Shown: positions 2,742 to 60,633 of the stretch, in pieces
Numbering within the stretch: the first letter of the stretch is position 1
How the letters are laid out: every line of letters begins with the position of its first letter
NCBI GenBank assembly: GCA_964400275.1
Contig: CAYNSS010000001.1
Coordinates: 558,839 to 622,838, forward strand
Source: an uncultured Pseudomonadota bacterium
GTDB taxonomy: Bacteria > Babelota > Babeliae > Babelales > Chromulinivoraceae
Reading direction: 5' to 3'
DNA: 64,000 bases
Notes under the pieces: generated by a model
What the model saw: the letters and a program-made list of their open reading frames with translations, nothing else
Told to the model about the DNA's origin: nothing
Database searches by the model: none
Translations under genes and position numbers: made by a program

Positions 2742-5096
2742 ATGAAGCGATTATTTATATGGACTTTTATATCTTTATTATACTTTATAGACGTTAAAAG
2801 TTCAGAAGCGTTAAGTAAAGAGCGCGTAACAGATTTAGTTATTTTTAATGATGCTCAAGAGCTTATACGCTTATCAGATTCTCCAGATAATATTAATCAA
2901 TTACAAAAAGCTATAATTAATAATTTTATCGCAGCGTTACTTGAGGAACAATTAATATTAGCTACAAAGTCACTATGGGTATCTTTTCAAAATATGGAAA
3001 CAATTTGGCAAGATTATACAGCTTTATCTACTGAAGAAATAAAAAATAAGTATCAGCCTAGGGATAATAACATTGAAAAAGTATCCAAAATAATGAAAGA
3101 AGTAGAGGATTATTATCAGCAAATAGAAAAGGATATTCGTGAGGGAAAAAAGGAATCTGAAATTAAAGATTTTTTAACAAAAATTCCTAATAAAAATAAT
3201 TATGCTGAAATTACAGCAATTTTTCAAGCGCATTGCTTGTATCAAATAATAATTTCTTATGATTATATTTGCAAAGATTTAGGTAATTTTATTTTGTTTA
3301 TTCCAAAAGAGTTAACTTTGAAAAGTGGTAATGATAAAGAAAAAAATATATTTATAGGATTATCTTATACTGAGTTACCGGATTTTGAGTATAAAGAAGA
3401 GTTGTCAATAAGCAATCAGGTAGATATCTTTAGTAAAATTGAGCAAATTCGTAACAATGAAAAATTAGGCGAAGAACTTTTAAATGTTTTAAAAAGGCTT
3501 ATTGTTAATAAGTCTATTTTGAATCATTATCCTAAAGCCGAATTGTCAAGTTTTAATATTATTATAAATGGGCATGGCAGTGAGGAGCTTGTTGCAGAAA
3601 TTTCTATGAAATTATATGATAATTTACAAACTAAAAAGAAAACATCTGATGTATTGCAACTTTTAAATTTTTTAAATAGTTCATTGATTAAAACTAAATC
3701 TTTATTAATATCATCATGTTTTTCGGGGGGTAAAAAAATTCGTGATATTATAAAATCTTCTTTAGATAATCCTTTTGTTATAGGTGATCCATCTAAGAAA
3801 AATTATTTATTTTGGAATAATTTTTTTGAATCTATAAAGTATTCCATTATTGCGGTTGGGGCATTTTATGCTCCATCTGTCGGTTTATTAAAAAAAGCAT
3901 TGTTTACATTTAAGGATGAAAATTTTGCTATTTATAATAATCATTACATTACAAAAGATGTAAAGGATAGATTGATCTTGAAAAAATACTTTCAGTATTT
4001 AAATGAAATTCCAGTTAAGTACAAAGAAGCAGCAAGATTATTTTTTTTTGAGGAGATCAATTTTGAGAATTTGGCAAGTATTAAGCTGCCAAATCTTGGC
4101 TGGTTTGTTCCTATAGAAATGACGATGAAAGGTGACAAAAATCAAGATACTGCAAATATATATTCAATTTCACAGATTGAAGCCCTCTTTAAAAAAGAAT
4201 TTACAATTGAAAAAGCCAAGAGAATATGGTTAAAAGCTAATTATGTAGACAAAATAAATATTCCAAAAGCATATTATAGTTTACCAAAATTCTTCTTAGT
4301 AAGTAATAATCAAAATTATGTTATTGAAGAAATAATAGCTCCTGATTTTATTTTATATAATGAAACAGCATCATTAGATACATCATTTTTTTCCGTTATT
4401 AAAAGTTTTCTTAGTGTGTCAGAAATTCTTGAACCAATTAATGTTGTTATTAAATCTTTAAAAACAAAAGATTATAGTTTTAAAAATATTTATATCTTTA
4501 TTTATAAGAACGATGTATGGATCCATGGTGATGGTAATTATAGAAATGGGTATATTTATACAGATGATAAGGGAAATACAAAAATTGCTTCATGGTTAAA
4601 TAGTGATAGTAAGGCTATATTTAATAAACAACAAGAAAATGATTATTCTTCTGAGATATCTGGTGAATATATAAGCTATGTTGAAAAAGAAGTTAAAAAA
4701 GAATTAGAGCAGTATGGAGATTATAAAAAAATTGAAAATCTTTATGGAAAAAATTATCCAAGTCATCTTAAAAAACAAATAATAAAAAGACAAAATTTAT
4801 TGAAAGAAGCAAAGCAAATAAAGAATGATAGTGATCCAAGGTTTAAGAGAAGTGAAACAAAAAAACAACCATATACCATAGAACATGTTATTAAAGGCTT
4901 AGATCTTGCACGTGCAGCTTTTTTCAAAAAATCAGAAAGAAAAGTTCAAGGTGTTCAGAATAATATACAAGAAATTATTAAAGTCTTAGATCTTGCACGT
5001 GCAACTGTTGTCCAAAAATCAGAAAGAAACATTCAAGATGCTCAGACTGTAGCTCGGGCATTAAATTTATCATATGCTGTTAAGCATGGTTTTTAA
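2742..5096 (+). CDS. large secreted protein, paralog A (candidate clan-CD-like cysteine peptidase fold)
   Basis: Start moved from track TTG 2703 to ATG 2742 (GAGAGAG upstream; signal peptide MKRLFIWTFISLLYFIDVKSSEA). Collinear with 5427..7886. FNIIINGHG (His codon 3573), then 48 aa, then SLLISSCFSGG (Cys codon 3717). Confidence 0.75.
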   Translation: MKRLFIWTFISLLYFIDVKSSEALSKERVTDLVIFNDAQELIRLSDSPDNINQLQKAIINNFIAALLEEQLILATKSLWVSFQNMETIWQDYTALSTEEIKNKYQPRDNNIEKVSKIMKEVEDYYQQIEKDIREGKKESEIKDFLTKIPNKNNYAEITAIFQAHCLYQIIISYDYICKDLGNFILFIPKELTLKSGNDKEKNIFIGLSYTELPDFEYKEELSISNQVDIFSKIEQIRNNEKLGEELLNVLKRLIVNKSILNHYPKAELSSFNIIINGHGSEELVAEISMKLYDNLQTKKKTSDVLQLLNFLNSSLIKTKSLLISSCFSGGKKIRDIIKSSLDNPFVIGDPSKKNYLFWNNFFESIKYSIIAVGAFYAPSVGLLKKALFTFKDENFAIYNNHYITKDVKDRLILKKYFQYLNEIPVKYKEAARLFFFEEINFENLASIKLPNLGWFVPIEMTMKGDKNQDTANIYSISQIEALFKKEFTIEKAKRIWLKANYVDKINIPKAYYSLPKFFLVSNNQNYVIEEIIAPDFILYNETASLDTSFFSVIKSFLSVSEILEPINVVIKSLKTKDYSFKNIYIFIYKNDVWIHGDGNYRNGYIYTDDKGNTKIASWLNSDSKAIFNKQQENDYSSEISGEYISYVEKEVKKELEQYGDYKKIENLYGKNYPSHLKKQIIKRQNLLKEAKQIKNDSDPRFKRSETKKQPYTIEHVIKGLDLARAAFFKKSERKVQGVQNNIQEIIKVLDLARATVVQKSERNIQDAQTVARALNLSYAVKHGF
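4887..5081 (+). repeat. in-frame tandem repeats at the 3' end of paralog A (29 aa, 25 aa and a partial unit)
   Basis: VIKGLDLARAAFFKKSERKVQGVQ / IIKVLDLARATVVQKSERNIQDAQ / VARALNLSYAV. Nucleotide repeat ttagatcttgcacgtgca occurs twice. Confidence 0.8.
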
Positions 5097-41650: not shown

Positions 41651-41727
41651 TAGATGTAAGTATATGAAAAAATAAAAAAAAGTTTATGCTTTTTTTATTA
41701 TTAAGGTGCTTTTTTAAAAGGATATCA

Positions 41728-44700
41728 ATGAAGAAACAAATATGGATATTGCTTAGTTTTCTTACGGTAGCATCAGTAATTTTTACCTGGAAGTATTGGG
41801 ACGTTTTTCCTATTGTAAATCTTTCAATTACTATGGATAAAAAAGAAGCTATACATCAAGCAAGGGCATTTGCTCATGCTAATCAATTTGATATTGCGGA
41901 CTATGAAGTAGTGACCCAATTTAAAGAAGAGAGTATGCTTCAAGCGTTTGTTGAGCTTGAGGGTGGTGGCAAGCAAGTATTTTTAGATATGATTAAAAAT
42001 GATTATTATCAGCCATATCAGTGGTCAGTAAGATTTTATAAGCATAAAAAAATATCAGAATATTTTGTGAATTTTACACCGAATGGAAAATTATATGAAT
42101 TTTCTATAAAAATACCTGAAAGTGAAAAAGGAGCAGCATTAAGCAAAGATAAAGCTCTTGAAGTTATTTTGAGTGGTCTAGAGCAATTTGCTGTTGATCT
42201 TTCCTTGTATGATTTAGTTGAACATAATACTGTAACGCAACCATCAGGAAGAATTGATCATAAATTTGTTTATGAGCGTACAGATATATCACTTGAAAAA
42301 GGTAGGTATCGTTTAGAACTAAAAGTGTACGGGGATATCTTTGCTGGCCTTGAGCGTAAGATTAAAATTCCTGATGAGTTTACTCGTCGTTATCAACAAA
42401 TGTTTGCTGATAATAAATTATTGGCAAATGTTGCACGTAATGTAGCTGTTTTGATATATGTTTTTATTTTTTTATTAATGTTGTCTTTGTTTTTCTTTCA
42501 AGATCCTCGTTTTTTACAACTAAAAAAACATGTTTATCTTGGCAGTGCTTTTTGGGTTATTATGTTTTTAACGATGATTAATAAAATGCCTTTTTTATGG
42601 AATTTTTATTCAACAGAATATTCACCATTGTTGTTTGCATGTAGTCAATTAGCAACAATGATAATATTTTCATTGTTGTTCTCAGCTTTTGTATATCTTT
42701 TGATGATACTTGTTGATGCTGCTGATCGTTATATATTTGGGTGGCATATTCAGTTTTTAAAATCTTGGTCTACTGATGCAGCTTCATCGGTACAACTTTT
42801 TGAAATGACAGTTTTGGGGTATATGGGAGCAGCTATATTTTTAGGATATGAAATTTTATATAATTTATGGACTCTTAAAATGGGTTGGTGGTCACCGCTA
42901 GGTAGATTAGTTGATCCAAATATTTTATCGAATTATATTCCATTTTTATCTCCAATTGGTTCTGCATTTCAAGCAGGATTTTGGGAAGAGTTTGCCTGTC
43001 GTGGACTACCGCTTGCAGGAATAGCTTTTTTAACGCGAAACTCTAAATATAAAAAAGGATGGTTTTTATTATTGTTTGTATTGCAGGCAGTTATTTTTGG
43101 AGCATTGCATGCAAATTATCCACAGCAGCCTTTTTATAATCGTTTAATAGAATTAATGATTCCAAGCTTTGTGTTTGCAGCTATCTATTATATTTTTGGT
43201 ATTTTGCCAGGAATTATTATGCATTTTGTATACGATGCATTTTTGATGTGTATTCCGATTTGGGTTTCTGGGTTATTCATGCAAAAAGTTTTAGCATTAT
43301 TGTGCATGGGTATTCCTTTATTTGTCGTTATTTTTGCATGGTATCGTAATAAAATGAAATTCAAGCAAGCAGCTTCTAGTTTATATAATAATGCGCAACA
43401 TTATCAGGATTCTTTAGCAGATGAAGTTGTTGTTAAAAGATCGGTTGGATGTAAATTAGAACGTAAATATGCTGTATTATTAATAGCCGTAGCATTAATT
43501 AGTGTTATTTGTTCATATTTATATTTGCCTCATAATTTTTCAAATTCTCGTTCGAAAATATCTCATCAGCAAGCCTTGAAAATAGCAAAGCATGCTATTG
43601 AACAATATGGTTTTACTTCAGATTCAGCATATATATTAAGTATTAATTTTATAAGTAACAATCAAACCCCAGAAAATAAATTTATTTGGCAGACATATGG
43701 CAAAACATCTTATGAAAATCTAGAGCAAGATTATATACCAGCTCACGGATGGCAAATTTTGTGGAAAAAATTTACAGGTAACGTTGAAGAACGTGCAGAA
43801 ATGTTTGGCGTTACGGTAAGTGTAGACGGAGATATTCTAAAGATTGCACACGCAATACCTGAATTTCGGCACGGAGCTGATCTAGATGCAAAAGATGCAC
43901 AAAAAATTGCTTTAGATTTAATTAAAAAAGTATATGGATTTGAAAAAGATATACTAGAACTTGTTTCTTGTGAAAGCAAAAAGCATGAACACAGAAGAGA
44001 TTATGTTGTTACTTATAAAGATTTGAGCCGCTATGAGTTTAAGCCTGATTTAGGTCAAGCAAGAATTATAGTAAGCTTAGCTGGGGATAAGCTTCAAGAG
44101 ATTAAACGGGTAATTTATGTACCTCAAGAATGGTCTCGTCAGGAGAATGGCAGGGTGATGCAAGATGCCATCTTAAATACGATATTGTATGCTATAGTAT
44201 TAATTTTTATAATTCTTGCTGCGTATTTCTCTATTCAAAGATTTAGGCTCACTGTTAAATTTTTAATACCAATATTTGCATTGACAGCCTTTTATGTTTT
44301 CCTTCGAAGCTTAAACCTTTTAAATGCTTTGGATCAAATTTTAATGATGCTTTCTACTGCTGAACCTTGGATTAATCAGATTGTTTCATTGGTTTCATCA
44401 TATTTTATATATTACTTAGCTATTGGATTTGTAACTATAACATTATTACGTTTACTTATACAAAATGGAGCACGAGCAATATGTAAAACTTATTTACCAT
44501 GGATTATAGGATTAATTTTTATAGGCGCAGCTGTACAATGTCTCAAGCTTTTATTTATGAGTATAAGTGTACAGATGATTCCATTAGATTATGAATCTGA
44601 GTATATAAATTATAAAATACCTGCTTTTGGAATGCTGATTGCTTACTTTTTATATAAAGTATTGTTGAGTTCATTAGAATTAATGAGCTTTTCTGTTATT

Positions 44701-45015
44701 GCTCAAAGATTAACAAGTTTCTATCAAATTTTATTTTTTATGGTTATTGGTATAGTAACAAGCGATTTAGCAATGTTATCGAATATACCAGTTTGGATAG
44801 CATCAGGTATTTGCATGGGGCTTATTCTATATTTATTACATAGATTAGTTATATCTCATGATTTAGAATCTATATTTTTAATAACATTTGGCGCTTCTTT
44901 TATGAAATTATTGCCTACAGTCTTATTTTTTGCTTATCCAGGGATATTGGTTCAAGTAGGAGTAAGCGGTTTTATTTTCTTTATCTTTATTATGTATCTA
45001 TACAGAAAACTTTAG
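41728..45015 (+). CDS. very large polytopic membrane protein with a CPBP (CAAX/Abi) intramembrane protease domain
   Basis: Start moved to ATG 41728 (MKKQIWILLSF). CPBP motifs FWEEFACRG (EExxxR), FGALHANY (FxxxH), HFVYDAF (HxxxD). Two extracytoplasmic regions with PepSY-like segments. Confidence 0.75.
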   Translation: MKKQIWILLSFLTVASVIFTWKYWDVFPIVNLSITMDKKEAIHQARAFAHANQFDIADYEVVTQFKEESMLQAFVELEGGGKQVFLDMIKNDYYQPYQWSVRFYKHKKISEYFVNFTPNGKLYEFSIKIPESEKGAALSKDKALEVILSGLEQFAVDLSLYDLVEHNTVTQPSGRIDHKFVYERTDISLEKGRYRLELKVYGDIFAGLERKIKIPDEFTRRYQQMFADNKLLANVARNVAVLIYVFIFLLMLSLFFFQDPRFLQLKKHVYLGSAFWVIMFLTMINKMPFLWNFYSTEYSPLLFACSQLATMIIFSLLFSAFVYLLMILVDAADRYIFGWHIQFLKSWSTDAASSVQLFEMTVLGYMGAAIFLGYEILYNLWTLKMGWWSPLGRLVDPNILSNYIPFLSPIGSAFQAGFWEEFACRGLPLAGIAFLTRNSKYKKGWFLLLFVLQAVIFGALHANYPQQPFYNRLIELMIPSFVFAAIYYIFGILPGIIMHFVYDAFLMCIPIWVSGLFMQKVLALLCMGIPLFVVIFAWYRNKMKFKQAASSLYNNAQHYQDSLADEVVVKRSVGCKLERKYAVLLIAVALISVICSYLYLPHNFSNSRSKISHQQALKIAKHAIEQYGFTSDSAYILSINFISNNQTPENKFIWQTYGKTSYENLEQDYIPAHGWQILWKKFTGNVEERAEMFGVTVSVDGDILKIAHAIPEFRHGADLDAKDAQKIALDLIKKVYGFEKDILELVSCESKKHEHRRDYVVTYKDLSRYEFKPDLGQARIIVSLAGDKLQEIKRVIYVPQEWSRQENGRVMQDAILNTILYAIVLIFIILAAYFSIQRFRLTVKFLIPIFALTAFYVFLRSLNLLNALDQILMMLSTAEPWINQIVSLVSSYFIYYLAIGFVTITLLRLLIQNGARAICKTYLPWIIGLIFIGAAVQCLKLLFMSISVQMIPLDYESEYINYKIPAFGMLIAYFLYKVLLSSLELMSFSVIAQRLTSFYQILFFMVIGIVTSDLAMLSNIPVWIASGICMGLILYLLHRLVISHDLESIFLITFGASFMKLLPTVLFFAYPGILVQVGVSGFIFFIFIMYLYRKL

Positions 45016-49026: not shown

Positions 49027-49497
49027 CTATGAATTTAATAATCCAGCAACAATGAAAACTATTCCCATACCAATTAATAAATCACTGGCAGCTTTTGGAT
49101 TATATTTTAAATGTGGATAGCGTTCATAGATGGCATCTTGTAATTCTCGTTCTGCTTGAATAATTACATATCTTGATTCGTTGCGATATTTTAATCGAGC
49201 AAGTTTAGCTTTTAATTTTGCAATGCGTGCTTCTTGGTATGCAATCTCGGCTTCTTTTTCTTTTTGATAGACATTGTAAGAGCTTGAATAATATGAGCTA
49301 TTGTATGTAGGGTTATAGTAATATCTATCATGATAATCATGGTAGCTGTAATCGTAATCATAGTCATCATAATCATCATAATCATAGGTGGTATCGTCAA
49401 GGTCATTATAATGATAAGAAAAACGAACATTGAAATCAGTGTTAGTTATACTAGAAATTGTCAGCAAAAATAATGCTATTAATGATAAATTTTTCAT
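49027..49497 (-). CDS. secreted, C-terminally anchored protein with an Asp/Tyr-rich low-complexity region
   Basis: Signal peptide. YHYNDLDDTTYDYDDYDDYDYDYSYHDYHDRYYYNPTYNSSYYSSSYNVY. Coiled-coil-like KEKEAEIAYQEARIAKLKAKLARLK. C-terminal TM LLIGMGIVFIVAGLL. Confidence 0.6.
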   Translation of the reverse strand: MKNLSLIALFLLTISSITNTDFNVRFSYHYNDLDDTTYDYDDYDDYDYDYSYHDYHDRYYYNPTYNSSYYSSSYNVYQKEKEAEIAYQEARIAKLKAKLARLKYRNESRYVIIQAERELQDAIYERYPHLKYNPKAASDLLIGMGIVFIVAGLLNS

Positions 49498-49530: not shown

Positions 49531-49664
49531 ATTTATAGGGTTGCTTGAAAAATATCTTTATCTTATTTTTAGGGTATCAAAGAATATTAATTTGGCAAAT
49601 TTGAACTTTTGTGGATTGTATTTCTAGTGTATTTTTTTGTATTAAATTAAAGTTTGTTATTAAG

Positions 49665-49697
49665 AAAAAAGCCTGCATTTTAGAGCAGGCTTTTTTT
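49665..49697. terminator. bidirectional terminator (serves the cysK-like gene on the minus strand)
   Basis: aaaaaagcctgc / gcaggctttttt stem with flanking A and T runs. Confidence 0.75.
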
Positions 49698-49757: not shown

Positions 49758-50678
49758 TTATTCGTAAAAACCTTTAGAGAGGTATGCTCGTCCTGAGTCT
49801 CCAAAGATAGCAACAGCTATATCGCCATCTCGTAAATTTTGACCATAGACGCTTGCGGCATAACCAACAGCTCCACTGCTTGGTCCAACTAAAAATCCGT
49901 GATTGTGGGCTAAATTTTTCATCATGCCGATACCTTGATCATCCGTAACTTCAATAAATTCATCGATGACTGAATTATCAAGCACTATTGATTCTGAGTC
50001 AACACCTAAGCCTTCAAGTTTGTAAGGTTTAGGATTTCCTTTTGTTGAACGATATGAGTTTGCACAATCAACACCAATAACTTTAATGTTAGGATTCATT
50101 TCTTTTAAAAATTTTCCAGCACCGCTAACGGTACCACCAGTTCCTGCAGCAGCTATGAAGTGAGTTATTTTGCCTTCTGTTTGTTTCCAGATCTCTGGTC
50201 CAAGTAATTTGTAGTGAGCTTCTGCATTAAGTGGATTACAATATTGATTAGGCATGTAAGAATTAGGAGTATTTTTTTGCAAGAGAACAGCCTGTGAATG
50301 GTAGCTATTTGGATCTTCGAGTCTGTCTGTGCCGGGAAATGTCAGAGCTGTTGCGCCATATGCTTTGATAGTATTAACTTTTTCTTTGCTATGTTTTTCT
50401 GTTGAACAGATAATAACTTTATATCCTTTAATTGCTCCAATCATAGCAAGAGCTACGCCATGATTACCAGATGAAGCATCAATGATAGTCATTCCTGGTT
50501 TTAGTAGGCCTTGTTTTTCTGCCCATTCAACCATATACAATGCTGATCGATCTTTAATACTTCCTCCAGGATTTAAGTATTCTAGTTTTGCATAGGTTGA
50601 TCCTGGATTATTTTCAAATATTTTTATGTTAGGAGTATTTCCTATAGCGTGAAGCAGGCTTTTTTTTAGTGTTTCCAT
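49758..50678 (-). CDS. cysK: PLP-dependent cysteine synthase / CBS-family enzyme
   Basis: LNPGGSIKDRSA (PLP lysine), SSGNHG, AAAGTGGTVSG. Confidence 0.8.
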   Translation of the reverse strand: METLKKSLLHAIGNTPNIKIFENNPGSTYAKLEYLNPGGSIKDRSALYMVEWAEKQGLLKPGMTIIDASSGNHGVALAMIGAIKGYKVIICSTEKHSKEKVNTIKAYGATALTFPGTDRLEDPNSYHSQAVLLQKNTPNSYMPNQYCNPLNAEAHYKLLGPEIWKQTEGKITHFIAAAGTGGTVSGAGKFLKEMNPNIKVIGVDCANSYRSTKGNPKPYKLEGLGVDSESIVLDNSVIDEFIEVTDDQGIGMMKNLAHNHGFLVGPSSGAVGYAASVYGQNLRDGDIAVAIFGDSGRAYLSKGFYE

Positions 50679-50700: not shown

Positions 50701-51645
50701 TTAAAATAGAAGCATTACAATTGCAACCAAGAGTCCATAAATTGCAAATGAGTCAATCATTGCAAGAGCAAGAAGTGCAATTTTTGAAAGATTAGAATAT
50801 TGTTCAAGGTTTAATCCAATTTGTTTGCAGGCAGCAGCACCAGTTTTTCCAGCGTTAATACTTGTGGCAATGGTGCTTAGTCCCATACAAAGTGCAGCAC
50901 TGATAAATTTCCAGCCTTGTACTGGGGCATCAGGAATAATAGTTGCTGATAAAATCATTAAAGATATTAGTAATGCAAATATTGCAGGAGTTTCAATAAT
51001 TGCTTCACAGATAAATGTGAAGGAAATAATTTTATTAAATGCTTTTTTGTTAACACCTACGGCAGTACATGCTGCAGCAGCAAAAATACTAAGACCTATA
51101 GAGGGTCCGATTGATCCGATCCCAATACTTAGTCCGCTCGAAAAAAGTTGAAGAGCTTGATTAAGATTTTGAATATTAGGCATTTTGTTTTTGATCATTA
51201 AAGACACAAGCATTCCAAACATATTAGGTGTCATAATCAATGTTTGGACAATAAGCATCAAGTTTAAAAATTTAGTATACATAAATGGTTGATGCGTCAG
51301 GCTATGACACATTTTAGCAGCAGGGATAGATGCTGCAATTCCAGCACAAAGACCAGAAATACCAAGTGCAATCATAATTCCTGCAATAGCAAGATCAGAA
51401 AAACTGGAATGTGTAATGGTATTTGTTTCATTGAGTAAAAGAATTGAAAGAACTAGTCCCATGATAGAAGCTGTTTCTACAATAGCCATACCAATAATAC
51501 ATAGCTTTGAAATCGAATTGGAAGCGGAAGGTTGTCGGTTTAAACTTTCCATGGCATTTTTTCCAATAATGCCTTGTCCAATGCTTGTGCCAATTGATGA
51601 AAGTATTGCAGGAATAGTTGAAAAAATAATATATAAAGTATTCAT
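50701..51645 (-). CDS. atpE: F-type ATP synthase c subunit, four hairpins fused in one 314-aa polypeptide
   Basis: Four ~80-aa repeats, each with a Gly/Ala-rich helix 1 and a helix 2 carrying the ion-site position: E57, Q134, E218, D298. Hairpin 1 keeps the RQP loop. Lies directly downstream of atpB. Confidence 0.8.
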   Translation of the reverse strand: MNTLYIIFSTIPAILSSIGTSIGQGIIGKNAMESLNRQPSASNSISKLCIIGMAIVETASIMGLVLSILLLNETNTITHSSFSDLAIAGIMIALGISGLCAGIAASIPAAKMCHSLTHQPFMYTKFLNLMLIVQTLIMTPNMFGMLVSLMIKNKMPNIQNLNQALQLFSSGLSIGIGSIGPSIGLSIFAAAACTAVGVNKKAFNKIISFTFICEAIIETPAIFALLISLMILSATIIPDAPVQGWKFISAALCMGLSTIATSINAGKTGAAACKQIGLNLEQYSNLSKIALLALAMIDSFAIYGLLVAIVMLLF

Positions 51646-51651
51646 AGTTTT

Positions 51652-52425
51652 TTATGATTGAGCTATTGATTTTTCTTTTTCTTCTTTTTCTTCTGACTCA
51701 TCTTCTGGAGCAACTTCCATTGATAAATAGGTTAATGTTAGCATCGTAAATACAAAAGCCTGAATAAGACCTTCGGCAAATCCAAATATTAAAAGTATTA
51801 TAAAGTTTGCACCAGTTATAAGACCTAATGTTTGACTGATTGCTGATCCTGAAATAGCACTTGAGTATAGAGAACTAATAATAAATCCACCAAAAATATT
51901 TCCAAAAAGACGAAATGATAAAGATATTATAGATGAAATTGCACCTATAACATGTAGTGGAAACATTAAAAAGAATGGTTCAAAATAATGTTTGATATAA
52001 TGCCATAATCCATTGGTTCTAATTGAAGTTCCATGAACAAATAAAAATGAAATTAGTCCTAAAGCAAGTGTCGTGTTTAAATCCTTAGTAGGTTCTTCCA
52101 GCCATGGAATAAATTGGATGGTATTGCACATCAAAATGAAGGTAAAAATAGATCCAATCATAGCAAGATTTGCAATAGAGCAAACTTTAAGTGATTGTTG
52201 AATTAAATCGCGAAAAGATTGAACGTATTGAAGCACAATAAATCGAACTAGGCTAGAATCATTTTTAAGGCAGCGGGAAATATACCAAGAGCTTATAAAA
52301 ATAATTCCAAGAATTACCCAAGTGCTGATGAGAGTATCAGCTTGTAAGTTCCAAAATTTGTGAGTGAAACCTAATGATTCAAATGGTTTCCAATTATGTT
52401 CATGTGTCATACCTTGGTTATGCAT
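51652..52425 (-). CDS. atpB: F-type ATP synthase a subunit
   Basis: LSFRLFGNIFGG with the essential stator Arg. 5-6 TM helices. Acidic C-terminal tail EDESEEKEEKEK. Confidence 0.88.
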   Translation of the reverse strand: MHNQGMTHEHNWKPFESLGFTHKFWNLQADTLISTWVILGIIFISSWYISRCLKNDSSLVRFIVLQYVQSFRDLIQQSLKVCSIANLAMIGSIFTFILMCNTIQFIPWLEEPTKDLNTTLALGLISFLFVHGTSIRTNGLWHYIKHYFEPFFLMFPLHVIGAISSIISLSFRLFGNIFGGFIISSLYSSAISGSAISQTLGLITGANFIILLIFGFAEGLIQAFVFTMLTLTYLSMEVAPEDESEEKEEKEKSIAQS

Positions 52426-52442: not shown

Positions 52443-52694
52443 TTAGTTTTTATACGTTACAATTGCAATCGTGCTTAGGTATGATGATACAAATAAAGTC
52501 ATCAGAAGTATAGGGTTGATTGTAATAAATTTTATAATATAGAAAAAAACGCATATAAGAAGTAAGAATCTTAATCCATTAAATAAGAAATCAAGAAAAA
52601 TATTATGATTCATTAAAAGATATTTTTTTCCCGTGATAAAGAGCGCTGCGTATAAGATTCCTAAAAAAATTATACTGAGTATCGAAATAAACAT
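52443..52694 (-). CDS. small membrane protein in the AtpI/AtpZ position
   Basis: 83 aa with 2-3 TM helices, immediately upstream of atpB. Call rests on position only. Confidence 0.4.
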   Translation of the reverse strand: MFISILSIIFLGILYAALFITGKKYLLMNHNIFLDFLFNGLRFLLLICVFFYIIKFITINPILLMTLFVSSYLSTIAIVTYKN

Positions 52695-58611: not shown

Positions 58612-60633
58612 ATGCTGAAGAAAATTATTTTGTTTAGTAGCGTAATTTTTTTAGAAAATGAATTATATTCAGCTGCAAAAGCAGCAGCTGCAGAACATCA
58701 TTTAGTTTTTGATAGAAATTTATACGAAAAGCTTAAAAAGTTTTATGATGAAATTTCAGAGAATAATATTGCCGAATTATCAAATAGATACTCTATATCA
58801 GAAGACATAGCGCAATTACTTTCTTTTCATAAAAAATACATAAATCAACCTATTGAGGAAAAAGGAGCAAAGCCTCTTTTGCTAGCAGTTTACAAAGGTG
58901 ATTTAGAAGTTATTCAATTATTGCTTGATCGTGGCGCTGATATTAATAAAGCTGTAAATGATGGAACAAGTCCACTTTTAATAGCAGCTGCGGGGGGTCG
59001 TGAAAAAGTGGTTGAATTATTGCTTAAGCGTGGTGCTGATAAAAATCAAGCAAATAATAATGGAGCAAGTCCACTTTGTGCAGCCGCTGAATATGGCCAT
59101 GAAAAAGTCGTTCAATTGTTGCTTGATCATGGTGCTGCAATTAATAAAGCAACGCATGATGGATCAACGCCAGTTTATATCGCAGCCTTCAAGGGTCATG
59201 AAAAAGTGGTTGAATTATTGCTTAATCGTGGTGCTGATAAAAATCAAGCAAATAATAATGGAATAACGCCACTTTTTGCAGCAGCTCAATATGGTCATGA
59301 AAAAGTGGTTGAATTATTGGTTAATGCTAGAGGTATTGAAATTAATAAATCAAACAATGGTAATGAAACACCACTTTATATCGCAGCCGTCAAGGGTCAT
59401 GAAAAAGTGGTTGAATTATTAGTTAATCATGGTGCTGATAAAAATCAAGCAAATAACAATGGAGTAACGCCACTTTATGCAGCAGCTGAAAATGGCCATG
59501 AAAAAATTGTTCAATTGTTGCTTGATCGTGGTGCTGAAATTAATAAAGCGGCAGTTGATGGAGCAACGCCACTTTATATAGCAACATTCAGGCGTCATAT
59601 AAATATTCTTAAACTATTACTTGGCGCTGGTGCCAATAAAGATCAAGCAACTAATGATGGAGCAACGCCATTTTATCTAGCTGCTGAAAAAGGCTACGAC
59701 GAGATTGTTGAATTGTTACTTAAGCATGGCGCTGATGCCAATAAGGCAAAAAATAATAATGCAACGCCACTTTTGGTAGCAGCTGAAAATGGCCATGAAA
59801 AAATTGTTCAATTGTTGCTTGATCGTGGTGCTGAAATTAATAAAGCAGCAAATGATGGAGCAACGCCACTTTATGCAGCAGTTGAAAATGGTCATGAAAA
59901 AGTTGTTCAATTGTTGCTTCATGTTCATGATATCGAAATTAATAAAGCTGCAAATGATGGAACAAATCCACTTTTACTAGCAGCTGCGATGGGTCATGAA
60001 AAAGTGGTTGAATTATTGCTTAATCGTGGTGCTGATAAAAATAAAGCAAATAAAGATGGAATAACGCCACTTTATGCAGCAGCTAAATATGGTCATGAAA
60101 AAGTTGTTGAAATGTTAGCTAATGCTAGTGGTATTGAAATTAATAAAGCGACGGGTGATGGAATAACTCCTCTTTGTACAGCAGTTGAAGAAGGCCATGA
60201 AAAAGTTGTTCAAGTATTGGTTAATGCTAGAGGTATTGAAATTAATAAATCAAATAATGAGCAAGAAACACCACTTTATATAGCAGCTCAAGAAGGCTAT
60301 GAAGAAATTGTTCATCTATTACTTCAAAAAAACGCTGATCCTAACAAAGCAAGAAAAGATAATTCAACACCACTTTTTGTAGCATCTTTCATGGGGAATA
60401 AAAATATTGTCAAATTATTGCTTGATCATGGCGCTGATAAAAACAAAGCAAAAAATGATGGAGCAACGCCACTTTATATAGCAGCTCAAGAACGTCATGC
60501 AGAAATTGTTAAATTATTGCTTGATTATGGCGCTGATAAAAATAAAGCAAATAATGATGGGCACACACCACGTTATATAGCATTGGCAAAACACTACGAC
60601 GATATAATTGAATTATTGCCTCAGGGTGCTTAA
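58612..60633 (+). CDS. ankyrin-repeat protein (17-18 repeats) with N-terminal signal-like segment
   Basis: 33-aa periodic G.TPL..AA..GH.KVV.LLL..GAD.NKA consensus repeated from about aa 86 to the C-terminus. Several 99-nt units are nearly identical at DNA level. Confidence 0.92.
   Translation: MLKKIILFSSVIFLENELYSAAKAAAAEHHLVFDRNLYEKLKKFYDEISENNIAELSNRYSISEDIAQLLSFHKKYINQPIEEKGAKPLLLAVYKGDLEVIQLLLDRGADINKAVNDGTSPLLIAAAGGREKVVELLLKRGADKNQANNNGASPLCAAAEYGHEKVVQLLLDHGAAINKATHDGSTPVYIAAFKGHEKVVELLLNRGADKNQANNNGITPLFAAAQYGHEKVVELLVNARGIEINKSNNGNETPLYIAAVKGHEKVVELLVNHGADKNQANNNGVTPLYAAAENGHEKIVQLLLDRGAEINKAAVDGATPLYIATFRRHINILKLLLGAGANKDQATNDGATPFYLAAEKGYDEIVELLLKHGADANKAKNNNATPLLVAAENGHEKIVQLLLDRGAEINKAANDGATPLYAAVENGHEKVVQLLLHVHDIEINKAANDGTNPLLLAAAMGHEKVVELLLNRGADKNKANKDGITPLYAAAKYGHEKVVEMLANASGIEINKATGDGITPLCTAVEEGHEKVVQVLVNARGIEINKSNNEQETPLYIAAQEGYEEIVHLLLQKNADPNKARKDNSTPLFVASFMGNKNIVKLLLDHGADKNKAKNDGATPLYIAAQERHAEIVKLLLDYGADKNKANNDGHTPRYIALAKHYDDIIELLPQGA

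Follow-up and report, generated by a model that had tools for sequence, protein, structure and literature searches.

What kind of rotor would an F-type ATPase build from a c subunit that carries four hairpins on a single chain? The question is raised by a gene in the 64-kb stretch of DNA analysed here (the window), which lies directly behind the gene of an F-type a subunit. Its product, termed c4 below, has 314 residues and eight predicted helices rather than the single hairpin of about 70-90 residues per chain. The c-ring sets the ion/ATP ratio of rotary ATPases, and the locus that encodes c4 contains the following features:

52443..52694, minus strand: small membrane ORF of 83 aa just upstream of the a-subunit gene, AtpI/AtpZ-like by position only
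51652..52425, minus strand: atpB, F-type ATPase a subunit, 257 aa (PF00119), with the stator Arg R172 in the motif LSFRLFGN
50701..51645, minus strand: c4, predicted four-hairpin (eight-helix) F-type c subunit, 314 aa plus stop, with ion-site residues E57 / M138 / E218 / D298
49758..50678, minus strand: PLP-dependent enzyme, CysK / cystathionine beta-synthase-like (PF00291, E 3.5e-68), referred to as the PALP gene
49664..49697, no strand assigned: palindromic GC-rich terminator-like hairpin with A and T runs on either side, just beyond the PALP gene

The 314-codon ORF of c4 is uninterrupted, and its ATG begins 6 nt past the stop codon of the a-subunit gene. The a subunit matches PF00119 over profile positions 2-217 of 217 (E 2.5e-36), scores 103.1 against TIGR01131 of NCBIfam (cutoff 102.6) and keeps the essential Arg. 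A counterpart of the small upstream ORF, 83-101 aa in length, occupies the same position in five other loci (L001, L003, L013, L015 and L017), and none of 6 homologues of this ORF has a Pfam match, even at E<=10. On the other side, the PALP gene is co-oriented with c4 and starts 22 nt past its stop codon; the two are probably co-transcribed. The same gene lies directly downstream of c4 in 17 of the 77 loci with enough sequence, and members of its cluster carry the JGI name cystathionine beta-synthase. The enzyme is probably not part of the ATPase. The terminator-like hairpin, identified by a consensus scan only, has a 13-pair stem with 5 G-C pairs and a T-run, and likely marks the end of the transcription unit.

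The preliminary description had read the ORF as four c-type hairpins, and two profiles agree with it. Pfam PF00137 (ATP-synt_C) matches c4 in 4 stretches (E 2.5e-33, 114.5 bits with a cutoff of 24), while a reference HMM made from eight canonical one-hairpin c subunits, independent of Pfam, recognizes four ungapped domains at aa 13-72, 88-151, 159-234 and 246-312, with i-Evalues of 5e-18, 2e-9, 7e-15 and 6e-11, respectively. The expected eight helices are present in the AlphaFold2 monomer model (pLDDT 90.8, pTM 0.86), where they are long and span residues 3-37, 39-72, 81-118, 120-157, 161-198, 200-233, 243-278 and 280-313. All of the peptide strings quoted at the earlier stage are found in c4. 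The hairpins had also been called strongly diverged and their fusion old; compared in register they are mutually 18-32% identical, and the longest internal repeat in the c4 DNA is at most 17 nt. By profile scores hairpins 3 and 4 form the closest pair, with no clean (AB)(AB) pattern. The profile of hairpin 1 gives the best scores for canonical one-hairpin c subunits, and that of hairpin 4 for the final hairpin of Acetobacterium woodii c1 and of other multi-hairpin c proteins. The four units, all on the minus strand, are:

51421..51645, hairpin 1, aa 1-75: helix-1 Q24; loop N-R-Q38-P39; live site E57-T58, codon 51475-51477
51175..51405, hairpin 2, aa 81-157: loop H118-Q119-P120; silenced site M138-T139-P140, codon 51232-51234
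50947..51165, hairpin 3, aa 161-233: loop G-V-N199-K-K; live site E218-T219-P220, codon 50992-50994
50704..50919, hairpin 4, aa 243-314: loop N279-L-E281; live site D298-S299 and Y303, codon 50752-50754

The assignment of E57, E218 and D298 as site residues is upheld by their conservation in the close relatives: E57 is kept in 119/120, E218, together with the T-P that follows it, in 120/120, and D298 in 120/120. Family-wide, position 298 is either D or E. Q24 is present in all 120 close relatives and Y303 in 226/247 relatives. Hairpin 3 has a second acidic residue, E214, one helical turn ahead of E218; in the family this position is E in 129/247 and Q in 89/247.

The site of hairpin 2 had been placed at Q134, giving a spacing of 77/84/80 between sites. 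In canonical c subunits, the carboxylate lies 18 residues past the loop Pro. Hairpins 1, 3 and 4 have a carboxylate at this position (E57, E218 and D298), and in hairpin 2 the count leads to M138 (P120+18). The carboxylate column of the reference HMM is likewise aligned to M138, and in a profile-profile alignment the four hairpins share one register. Q134 is ruled out by these three results and is the i-4 residue; with M138 the spacing becomes a regular 81/80/80. Thus, the claim that one carboxylate has been lost holds for hairpin 2, but the residue in its place is M138. Across the family, position 138 is M, Q or E. Mean column identity is 0.60 in hairpin 2, compared with 0.51 in hairpin 1 and 0.56 in hairpin 4, and by this measure the silent hairpin appears to be under constraint at least as strong as the live ones.

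The loops needed correction as well. An RQP loop had been attributed to hairpin 1 only, but hairpin 2 has H118-Q119-P120, and its three positions are R in 220, Q in 232 and P in 247 of 247 relatives. In this set the Q-P motif is nearly invariant in the loops of both hairpin 1 and hairpin 2, while the loops of hairpins 3 (V-N-K) and 4 (N-L-E) have diverged from the polar R-Q/N-P. Since Q-P loops touch the central stalk in known enzymes, their near invariance argues for coupling of c4 to an F1 rotor.

In a survey of orthologs, full-length relatives (313-329 aa) numbered more than 240, and those that are named belong to Dependentiae/Babeliales. There are 120 close homologues of 306-322 aa (names including Dependentiae, Babeliales and TM6), and 136 clusters at 50% identity match c4 from end to end with E<1e-30. 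Judged from these sequences, c4 appears to be conserved across the parasitic phylum Dependentiae. A scan of viral contigs found no c4. In 81 of the 97 c4 loci examined, the gene directly before c4 encodes the a subunit. The concern that the fusion reflects a local mis-assembly is settled by this survey, and the fusion is ancient. An assembly artefact is ruled out by the intact ORF, the lack of long DNA repeats and the hundreds of independent assemblies of like length (313-322 aa); with strong conservation in all four hairpins, an artefact or a degenerating pseudogene is hardly conceivable.

The relatives also differ in the residues at the four sites. The pattern E-M-E-D of the c4 studied here is found in 112/120 close relatives, and the other patterns among family representatives are E-Q-E-D (65), E-Q-E-E (21), E-E-E-E (20) and E-E-E-D (3). 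It should be noted that the E-E-E-E members come from records named '[bacterium]' only, and that the Dependentiae assignment rests on named relatives. The site-pattern groups are coherent in sequence, and they trace a stepwise loss of one site in four, from E-E-E-E through E-Q-E-D/E to E-M-E-D.

With respect to class, the best NCBIfam matches of c4 are F0F1 c models, although c4 stays below all high-cutoff equivalog models (e.g. PRK13471, 98.9 vs 124). It scores far below the cutoffs of the V-type K models (72.1 vs 211 and 51.9 vs 127), which places it outside the V/A-type proteolipids (NtpK, subunit c/K), and below those of the N-ATPase models (TIGR03322, 74.5 vs 130.85; TIGR03306, 96.7 vs 302.1); the N-ATPase operon layout atpD-C-Q-R-B-E-F-A-G is absent. 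The neighbour of c4 is a PF00119 a subunit with the essential Arg, and not a V/A-type a(I) subunit. In the PDB, the best sequence match is the F-type c1 of A. woodii (4bem chain J; E 3e-11 to aa 171-312), which is also the best fold match of the c4 model (E 1e-4). Because the adjoining a subunit is F-type and carries R172, the F0F1 c models of NCBIfam rank first and A. woodii c1 is the best PDB match, sequence and model together support the view of c4 as a four-hairpin, eight-helix proteolipid of F-type affinity.

Searches of the 64-kb window and of the 10 kb around each c4 found no gene for F1 (alpha/beta), gamma, delta, epsilon or b. The queries, run against the window and 99 loci, were the alpha, beta, gamma, delta, epsilon and b proteins of two multi-hairpin loci described below (L016/L019; blastp) and E. 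coli AtpD (tblastn). The a-c4 pair is unlinked to F1, b or delta genes in 97/97 loci, as would be the case if a and c4 alone formed an Fo-only proton conductor, or the rotor of another machine outside F1Fo. Split atp operons are common in bacteria, which counts against such a reading, as does the near invariance of the stalk-contact loops. In addition, ATP synthase has been listed among the core genes of all TM6 genomes (PMC4776705), and we consider a role outside F1Fo very improbable. The link between c4 and F1, with no F1 gene nearby, is drawn from this literature and from loop conservation.

To look for a second c gene, every ORF of 45 aa or more was scanned with an HMM, both in the window and in each locus. 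The sole match is a partial duplicate in L092; single-hairpin c genes are absent from the window and from roughly 1 Mb of flanking sequence (97 loci, within 10 kb). This bears on whether one or a few c4 chains might sit in a ring made mainly of single-hairpin c, encoded with the unlinked b-delta-alpha-gamma-beta-epsilon cluster. Such a hybrid has parallels: F1Fo operons of Desulfobacterota/Thermodesulfobacteriota contain related but distinct c genes with 4-6 fused hairpins, about 30% identical to c4, and a single-hairpin c of 83-89 aa follows the fused c inside a complete F1Fo operon in all three of the non-Dependentiae multi-hairpin loci examined (L016, L018 and L019). The hairpin correspondences, in which the last hairpin resembles H4 and the internal ones H2/H3, suggest shared ancestry with these proteins. 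The Dependentiae operon is broken exactly after c4, so that a single-hairpin c could have stayed with the b-delta-F1 cluster. A. woodii has the same layout of a fused c with an adjoining single-hairpin c (PMC9171764), whose second element is absent in the 97 loci and the window. Against the hybrid also stands the number of live sites. The Desulfobacterota proteins keep one carboxylate, in the first hairpin only (E-Q-Q-Q...), whereas 3-4 of the 4 sites in c4 retain theirs and are strongly constrained, which fits the main ion carrier better than a single-copy spacer. A hybrid rotor is therefore a serious but doubtful possibility.

We lean, with modest assurance, towards the reading that c4 is the F1Fo rotor proteolipid of a Babeliales (phylum Dependentiae) bacterium, forming a c4-only ring in which one site in four is silent and which works mainly as an ATP-driven proton pump. 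In this c4-only rotor, four c hairpins would be joined head to tail by short periplasmic linkers, with a protonatable carboxylate on hairpins 1, 3 and 4 (E57, E218 and D298), while that of hairpin 2 would have been replaced by Gln first and then by Met in this clade. Two to four c4 chains would most likely form the whole c-ring facing R172 of the a subunit, three chains with 12 hairpins being the simplest case. One step in every four would then pass without an ion, and the coupling ratio would fall by a quarter, e.g. from 12 to 9 H+ per turn and from 4 to 3 H+ per ATP. Through the fusion, what share of the sites is silent and how far apart the silent ones lie would both be fixed in the gene. 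The architecture of c4, its register and conservation, its F-type a partner and the stepwise site loss in the family follow directly from the analysis, whereas the make-up of the ring, its size, its coupling to protons and the direction in which the enzyme runs are inferred. A ring size in multiples of four, as proposed earlier, holds only if the genome has no single-hairpin c elsewhere.

The direction of operation is suggested by the physiology of the group. Dependentiae have been inferred to have no respiratory chain, to use ATP/ADP translocases and to run their ATP synthase in reverse (PMC4776705; PMC6561590). With no respiratory chain and with ATP imported from the host, the enzyme would work mainly as an ATP-driven proton pump, and a reversed ATP synthase fits a lowered H+/ATP ratio, which would permit a larger membrane potential per ATP. 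The earlier proposal of an ATP-driven pump thus agrees with published inferences on Dependentiae; its argument from site loss does not suffice, since Litty and Mueller 2022 describe an enzyme with a reduced-site c subunit that still synthesises ATP (PMC9171764). A physiological ATP synthase, driven by a gradient from an H+-PPase or the host and with the fused c as a neutral or stability-related variant, would draw on the same finding: reduced-site rotors can make ATP at 90-150 mV (PMC9171764), and the authors of a groundwater MAG study speculate on how ultra-small, host-dependent organisms may use an ATP synthase (PMC9938205). All four sites are, moreover, kept in a fifth of the family representatives. 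Such a role is nevertheless quite improbable, given the missing respiratory chain and the supply of ATP by translocases; a lower H+/ATP ratio also raises the pmf needed, which is the wrong direction with weak pmf sources.

The coupling ion deserves separate consideration, as Q24 and E57-T58 had been taken as a weak hint of a Na+ site. Q24 (215/247), E57 and T58 match Q32/E65/S66 of I. tartaricus, S299 and Y303 of hairpin 4 would complete a site at the H4-H1 interface, and the closest solved relatives of c4 by sequence are the Na+ enzymes of A. woodii, I. tartaricus and F. nucleatum. The helix-1 Gln, however, also occurs in the H+-coupled c subunits of chloroplasts and cyanobacteria, which counts against a Na+ reading. 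In I. tartaricus, the ligands are Q32/E65 on one hairpin and V63(CO)/S66/T67/Y70 on its neighbour, and the Thr67 position is treated as separating H+ from Na+ enzymes (PMC2359735). Compared at the level of sequence, c4 lacks the full ligand set: the helix-1 Gln is present in hairpin 1 only, with L185 and A/S265 in its place at the E218 and D298 sites, and the partner-hairpin equivalent of Thr67 is F300, P140 or P220 at the three live sites. The hint is therefore a weak one, and Na+ coupling of the c4 enzyme is unlikely.

If a four-hairpin F-type c with a silenced site does extend across the phylum, its members would serve as natural intermediate stages in which the evolution of gearing can be studied. 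A c4-only rotor, if confirmed, would have a genetically constrained ring stoichiometry, useful for structural and single-molecule work, and its design would be tied to an energy-parasitic lifestyle. Published literature searched by us contains no description of a fused c in Dependentiae/TM6/Babeliales. A survey of c-ring diversity applied a >250 aa filter (bioRxiv 10.1101/2024.02.27.582367); long-sequence filters of this kind would cause proteins like c4 to be missed.

How does c4 compare with the rotors already described? To our knowledge, the sole F-type example of duplicated hairpins with a lost ion site so far is the two-hairpin c1 of A. woodii. Like c4, it is F-type, its hairpins are fused by a periplasmic linker and one carboxylate has been replaced (E to Q). 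The silent site, however, is in the last of two hairpins in c1 and in the second of four in c4. The ring of A. woodii is a hybrid of 9 c2/3 and 1 c1, the c2/3 subunits having one hairpin each and genes next to that of c1 (PMC9171764). No single-hairpin c gene lies near c4. The A. woodii enzyme is Na+-coupled and makes ATP.

The 16-kDa proteolipid of V-type enzymes and NtpK of E. hirae share with c4 the combination of gene fusion and ion-site loss, by which the ion/ATP ratio is lowered in pump enzymes. They have 4 TM helices with one site per two hairpins, whereas c4 loses 1 in 4, and unlike c4 they work in complexes of the V/A type, whose a/I subunit is V-type. Each aligns to half of the c4 model (target-normalised TM-score up to 0.87), and the sequence match is weak (E 5.7e-4). 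We regard c4, of which we found no published description, as a variant of the logic of A. woodii c1 and the V-type proteolipids. The archaeal A-type c subunits, triplicated in Methanocaldococcus and with 13 hairpins in Methanopyrus, are natural covalent multimers as well, some with reduced sites, but they belong to A1Ao enzymes, while the partner of c4 is an F-type a subunit. Work with engineered fused c subunits (E. coli c2-c4; Bacillus PS3 c10) shows that covalently linked F-type hairpins can yield functional rings and that linking them limits which stoichiometries can occur; these are laboratory constructs of identical repeats, in contrast to the naturally diverged hairpins of c4 with what looks like a programmed silent site. 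The natural c subunit forms listed so far have 1, 2, 3 or 13 hairpins, four not being among them (PMC9171764).

The Desulfobacterota fused c genes, on which we found no publication, resemble c4 in their position directly after an F-type a gene, in an internal x-T-P-x-I-F motif and in an H4-like last hairpin. In the textbook account, V-type pumps arose from synthases by hairpin duplication followed by ion-site loss. We put forward, tentatively and with the balance tipped slightly against it, that a whole F-type c-ring made from a few copies of c4, with every fourth site silenced, may be an independent bacterial replay of this F-to-V transition from synthase to dedicated pump, with intermediates preserved in extant lineages, and that, together with the Desulfobacterota proteins, it may point to a programmed gearing of F-type rotors, through c subunits with several hairpins, that is widespread and has gone unrecognised.

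The 314-residue F-type c subunit, c4, is matched by the Pfam ATP-synt_C model (PF00137) in four stretches (E 2.5e-33), the number that the preliminary description had anticipated. Its top NCBIfam matches are F0F1 c models, although the equivalog cutoffs are passed for the short PRK06876 and TIGR01260 models only, and its scores on the V-type K and N-ATPase models of NCBIfam lie far under the cutoffs. A reference HMM, built from eight canonical single-hairpin c sequences and used as supporting evidence only, finds four ungapped domains at residues 13-72, 88-151, 159-234 and 246-312. The AlphaFold2 model (75 homologues; pLDDT 90.8, pTM 0.86) has eight long helices. In a Foldseek search of the PDB, this model is matched by A. 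woodii c1, E. hirae NtpK and V-type c subunits, each over about half of its length (about 150-160 columns), and no solved chain there matches more than half. In-register identity between the hairpins (H1 to H4) is only 12-21 of 65 positions, and a search for internal DNA repeats in the gene found none, in agreement with the earlier view that the hairpins are strongly diverged and not an artefact of identical repeats. Taken together, the Pfam, reference HMM, AlphaFold2, Foldseek, DNA-repeat and identity results establish that the four-hairpin architecture is real, and the fusion described from the sequence is correct far beyond chance.

Counting 18 residues on from the loop proline, the place of the carboxylate in canonical c subunits, puts the c4 sites at E57 in H1 (P39+18), M138 in H2 (P120+18), E218 in H3 (position 200+18) and D298 in H4 (position 280+18). 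M138 falls in the carboxylate column of the reference HMM, M138-T-P is the counterpart of E218-T-P in H3, and all four hairpin profiles share one register in hhalign. The preliminary description was right that one carboxylate is lost in H2, but it assigned the loss to Q134, which at i-4 corresponds to Gln61 of I. tartaricus; under the common register, its site spacing of 77/84/80 becomes 81/80/80. Nor is the RQP loop confined to H1: the stalk-contact loop of H2 is H-Q-P in c4, and its positions are R in 220, Q in 232 and P in 247 of 247 relatives. H3 carries an extra acidic residue, E214 (51004-51006), one helical turn ahead of E218 (E214-x-x-x-E218). Of the 247 members, 129 have E and 89 have Q at position 214, the equivalents of which are Q134 in H2 and L/Q294 in H4.

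A survey of orthologs, suggested previously as a check, returned full-length four-hairpin relatives. A word-indexed search listed at least 120 c4 homologues with 47-94% identity, nearly all of 313-322 residues, and among 50%-identity representatives an exhaustive search turned up 492 matches, 136 of them under 1e-30. Clusters of about 310-325 residues that align end to end with c4, at 28-45% identity, number more than 130, and one representative at 30% identity still bears the label Babeliales. Genome and metagenome scans yielded 90 more loci, of low G+C wherever measured. Site patterns were compared in 247 full-length members (120 close relatives and 127 representatives).

Site patterns in the c4 family, written H1/H2/H3/H4
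E-M-E-D: 112 of 120 close relatives
E-Q-E-D: 65 of 127 representatives
E-Q-E-E: 21 of 127 representatives
E-E-E-E: 20 of 127 representatives
E-E-E-D: 3 of 127 representatives
E-Q-G-E (additional H3 loss): 3 of 127 representatives

These groups are coherent in sequence. The parsimonious history of the H2 site would be E to Q to M, an unrooted order whose direction is inferred from the carboxylate borne by every canonical c subunit. Conservation of the silent hairpin equals that of the live ones, and variation is found in the linkers.

The c4 gene and its neighbours are arranged as follows:

52443-52694, minus strand: 83-residue hydrophobic membrane ORF, 5' of atpB, where AtpI/AtpZ would be expected
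51652-52425, minus strand: F-type a-subunit gene, 3' of the 83-residue ORF
50701-51645, minus strand: c4 ORF (314 codons), starting 6 nt beyond the a-subunit gene
49758-50678, minus strand: PLP-dependent enzyme (PALP) gene, CysK/cystathionine beta-synthase-like, starting 22 nt past the c4 stop
49664-49697: terminator-like palindrome beyond the PALP gene

The F-type a gene lies directly 5' of c4 in 81 of 97 loci, and neither the c4 loci nor the 64-kb window contains homologues of alpha/beta, gamma, delta, epsilon or b, or a single-hairpin c gene. Thus, the a-c4 pair is a conserved module, unlinked from the remaining enzyme genes. That c4 organisms have F1 rests on the literature: Yeoh et al. 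(PMC4776705) count ATP synthase in the gene core shared by every TM6 genome, and describe ATP/ADP translocases and an H+-PPase but neither a TCA cycle nor an electron transport chain. The Q-P loops of H1 and H2 are near-invariant, which indirectly supports a central-stalk contact. In locus L092, a 175-residue ORF (3966-4490, plus strand) about 2 kb downstream of c4, past an ankyrin-repeat gene, is nearly identical to H3-H4 of that contig's c4 (one difference in the portion compared by eye). It represents a partial duplication or else a repeat introduced by metagenome assembly.

The PALP gene is apparently co-transcribed with c4 and lies directly 3' of it in 17 of the 77 loci with sufficient sequence; the order persists in relatives with as little as 35% c4 identity (locus L013), and no functional tie to the ATPase is obvious. 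The 83-residue ORF, which matches no Pfam family, keeps its place upstream of atpB in five other loci (83-101 residues) and may represent a diverged factor for c-ring assembly. With a G+C content of about 31%, ankyrin-repeat genes and nearest c homologues that bear the names Dependentiae, Babeliales or TM6, the window comes from an organism of the Dependentiae, a phylum with obligate host dependence. One ankyrin-repeat protein (58612-60633, plus strand; 673 residues, repeats over nearly its whole length) is of a typical Dependentiae host-interaction gene type. A 156-residue ORF (49027-49497, minus strand) has a hydrophobic N-terminus, an Asp/Tyr-rich low-complexity stretch (YDYDDYDDYDYDYSYHDYHDRYYYN...) and a hydrophobic segment at its C-terminus. 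A polytopic membrane protein of 1109 residues (41686-45015, plus strand) is syntenic with relatives, its 1104-residue counterpart in locus L001 showing a faint DUF4901 match.

Most likely, a ring of c4 chains would face R172 of the a subunit, with one step in four silent. That the ring is built from c4 alone is the reading towards which we lean.

Ions per ATP for rings of c4 chains
2 chains, 8 hairpins: 2.67 with all sites live, 2 with one in four silent
3 chains, 12 hairpins: 4 with all sites live, 3 with one in four silent
4 chains, 16 hairpins: 5.33 with all sites live, 4 with one in four silent

By the thermodynamic relation quoted in PMC9171764, a smaller ratio in a pump gives a higher maximal pmf per ATP. 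An Na+ site takes its principal Glu and helix-1 Gln from one hairpin, and its equivalents of Ser66, Thr67 and Tyr70 from the preceding one (PMC2359735). The Thr67-equivalents of c4 are F300, P140 and P220, and the helix-1 Gln is found in H1 only. These residues favour a proton as the probable coupling ion over the Na+ hinted at earlier from Q24 and E57-T58. The most complete site would arise at the H4-to-H1 junction (Q24, E57, S299, Y303), which would explain the strong conservation of these residues and would require H4 to pack against an H1-like hairpin.

The main rival is a hybrid ring, in which c4 would be joined by a single-hairpin c left with the F1 cluster at the operon split. We consider this less likely, as 3-4 sites of c4 stay live under strong constraint and no such partner gene was seen near it, but it has precedents among odd-length matches, where other multi-hairpin F-type c genes were met (L016 10001-11497; L018 5566-7164; L019 7654-9270).

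Other multi-hairpin F-type c proteins
P0205: 406 residues, five hairpins, E-Q-Q-Q-Q
P0265: 434 residues, five hairpins, all E
P0257: 320 residues, four hairpins, E-S-S-Q

Each of these three genes sits in a complete F1Fo operon, directly 3' of the a gene, with a single-hairpin c alongside. A search with P0205 gave 2409 relatives, of which the top 120 carry the names Desulfobacterales, Deltaproteobacteria or Thermodesulfobacteriota. These 120 have four (n=21), five (n=69) or six (n=30) hairpins and, nearly all, a carboxylate in the first hairpin only. The last hairpins of these proteins score highest on the Dependentiae H4 profile and the internal ones on H2/H3, which suggests an architecture shared with A. 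woodii c1 and hints at a possible single-hairpin c in Dependentiae. The Desulfobacterota proteins seem to take the hybrid-rotor principle of A. woodii much further, and no description of this 4-6-hairpin family was found in the literature searched. Its members P0330-P0448 have about 324, 404 or 485 residues for four, five or six hairpins, with E-Q-Q-Q(-Q-Q) prevailing. Distant matches also include giant proteolipids (P0143/P0269, 1139-1147 residues; P0246 and its cluster, 928-968 residues). One of the two clusters comes from Asgard MAGs (Promethearchaeota/Hodarchaeota); the other has at least eight 'ALVESAAIYGL'-type hairpins spaced roughly 75 residues apart, suggesting a Methanopyrus-like single-chain rotor.

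The preliminary description knew of no four-hairpin F-type c, and our full-text search likewise found no account of a fused c in Dependentiae, although papers outside its reach could hold one. A 2022 paper lists c subunits of 1, 2, 3 or 13 hairpins (PMC9171764), a 2024 large-scale c-ring survey dropped sequences above 250 residues (bioRxiv 10.1101/2024.02.27.582367), and database entries for c4 read 'ATP synthase F0 subunit C' or 'hypothetical'. The c4 protein follows the same principle as A. woodii c1 and the V-type proteolipids, namely hairpin fusion with site loss; it differs from them in its four hairpins, the silencing of one site in four and its phylum-wide conservation, and is thus an extension of this known principle to four hairpins.
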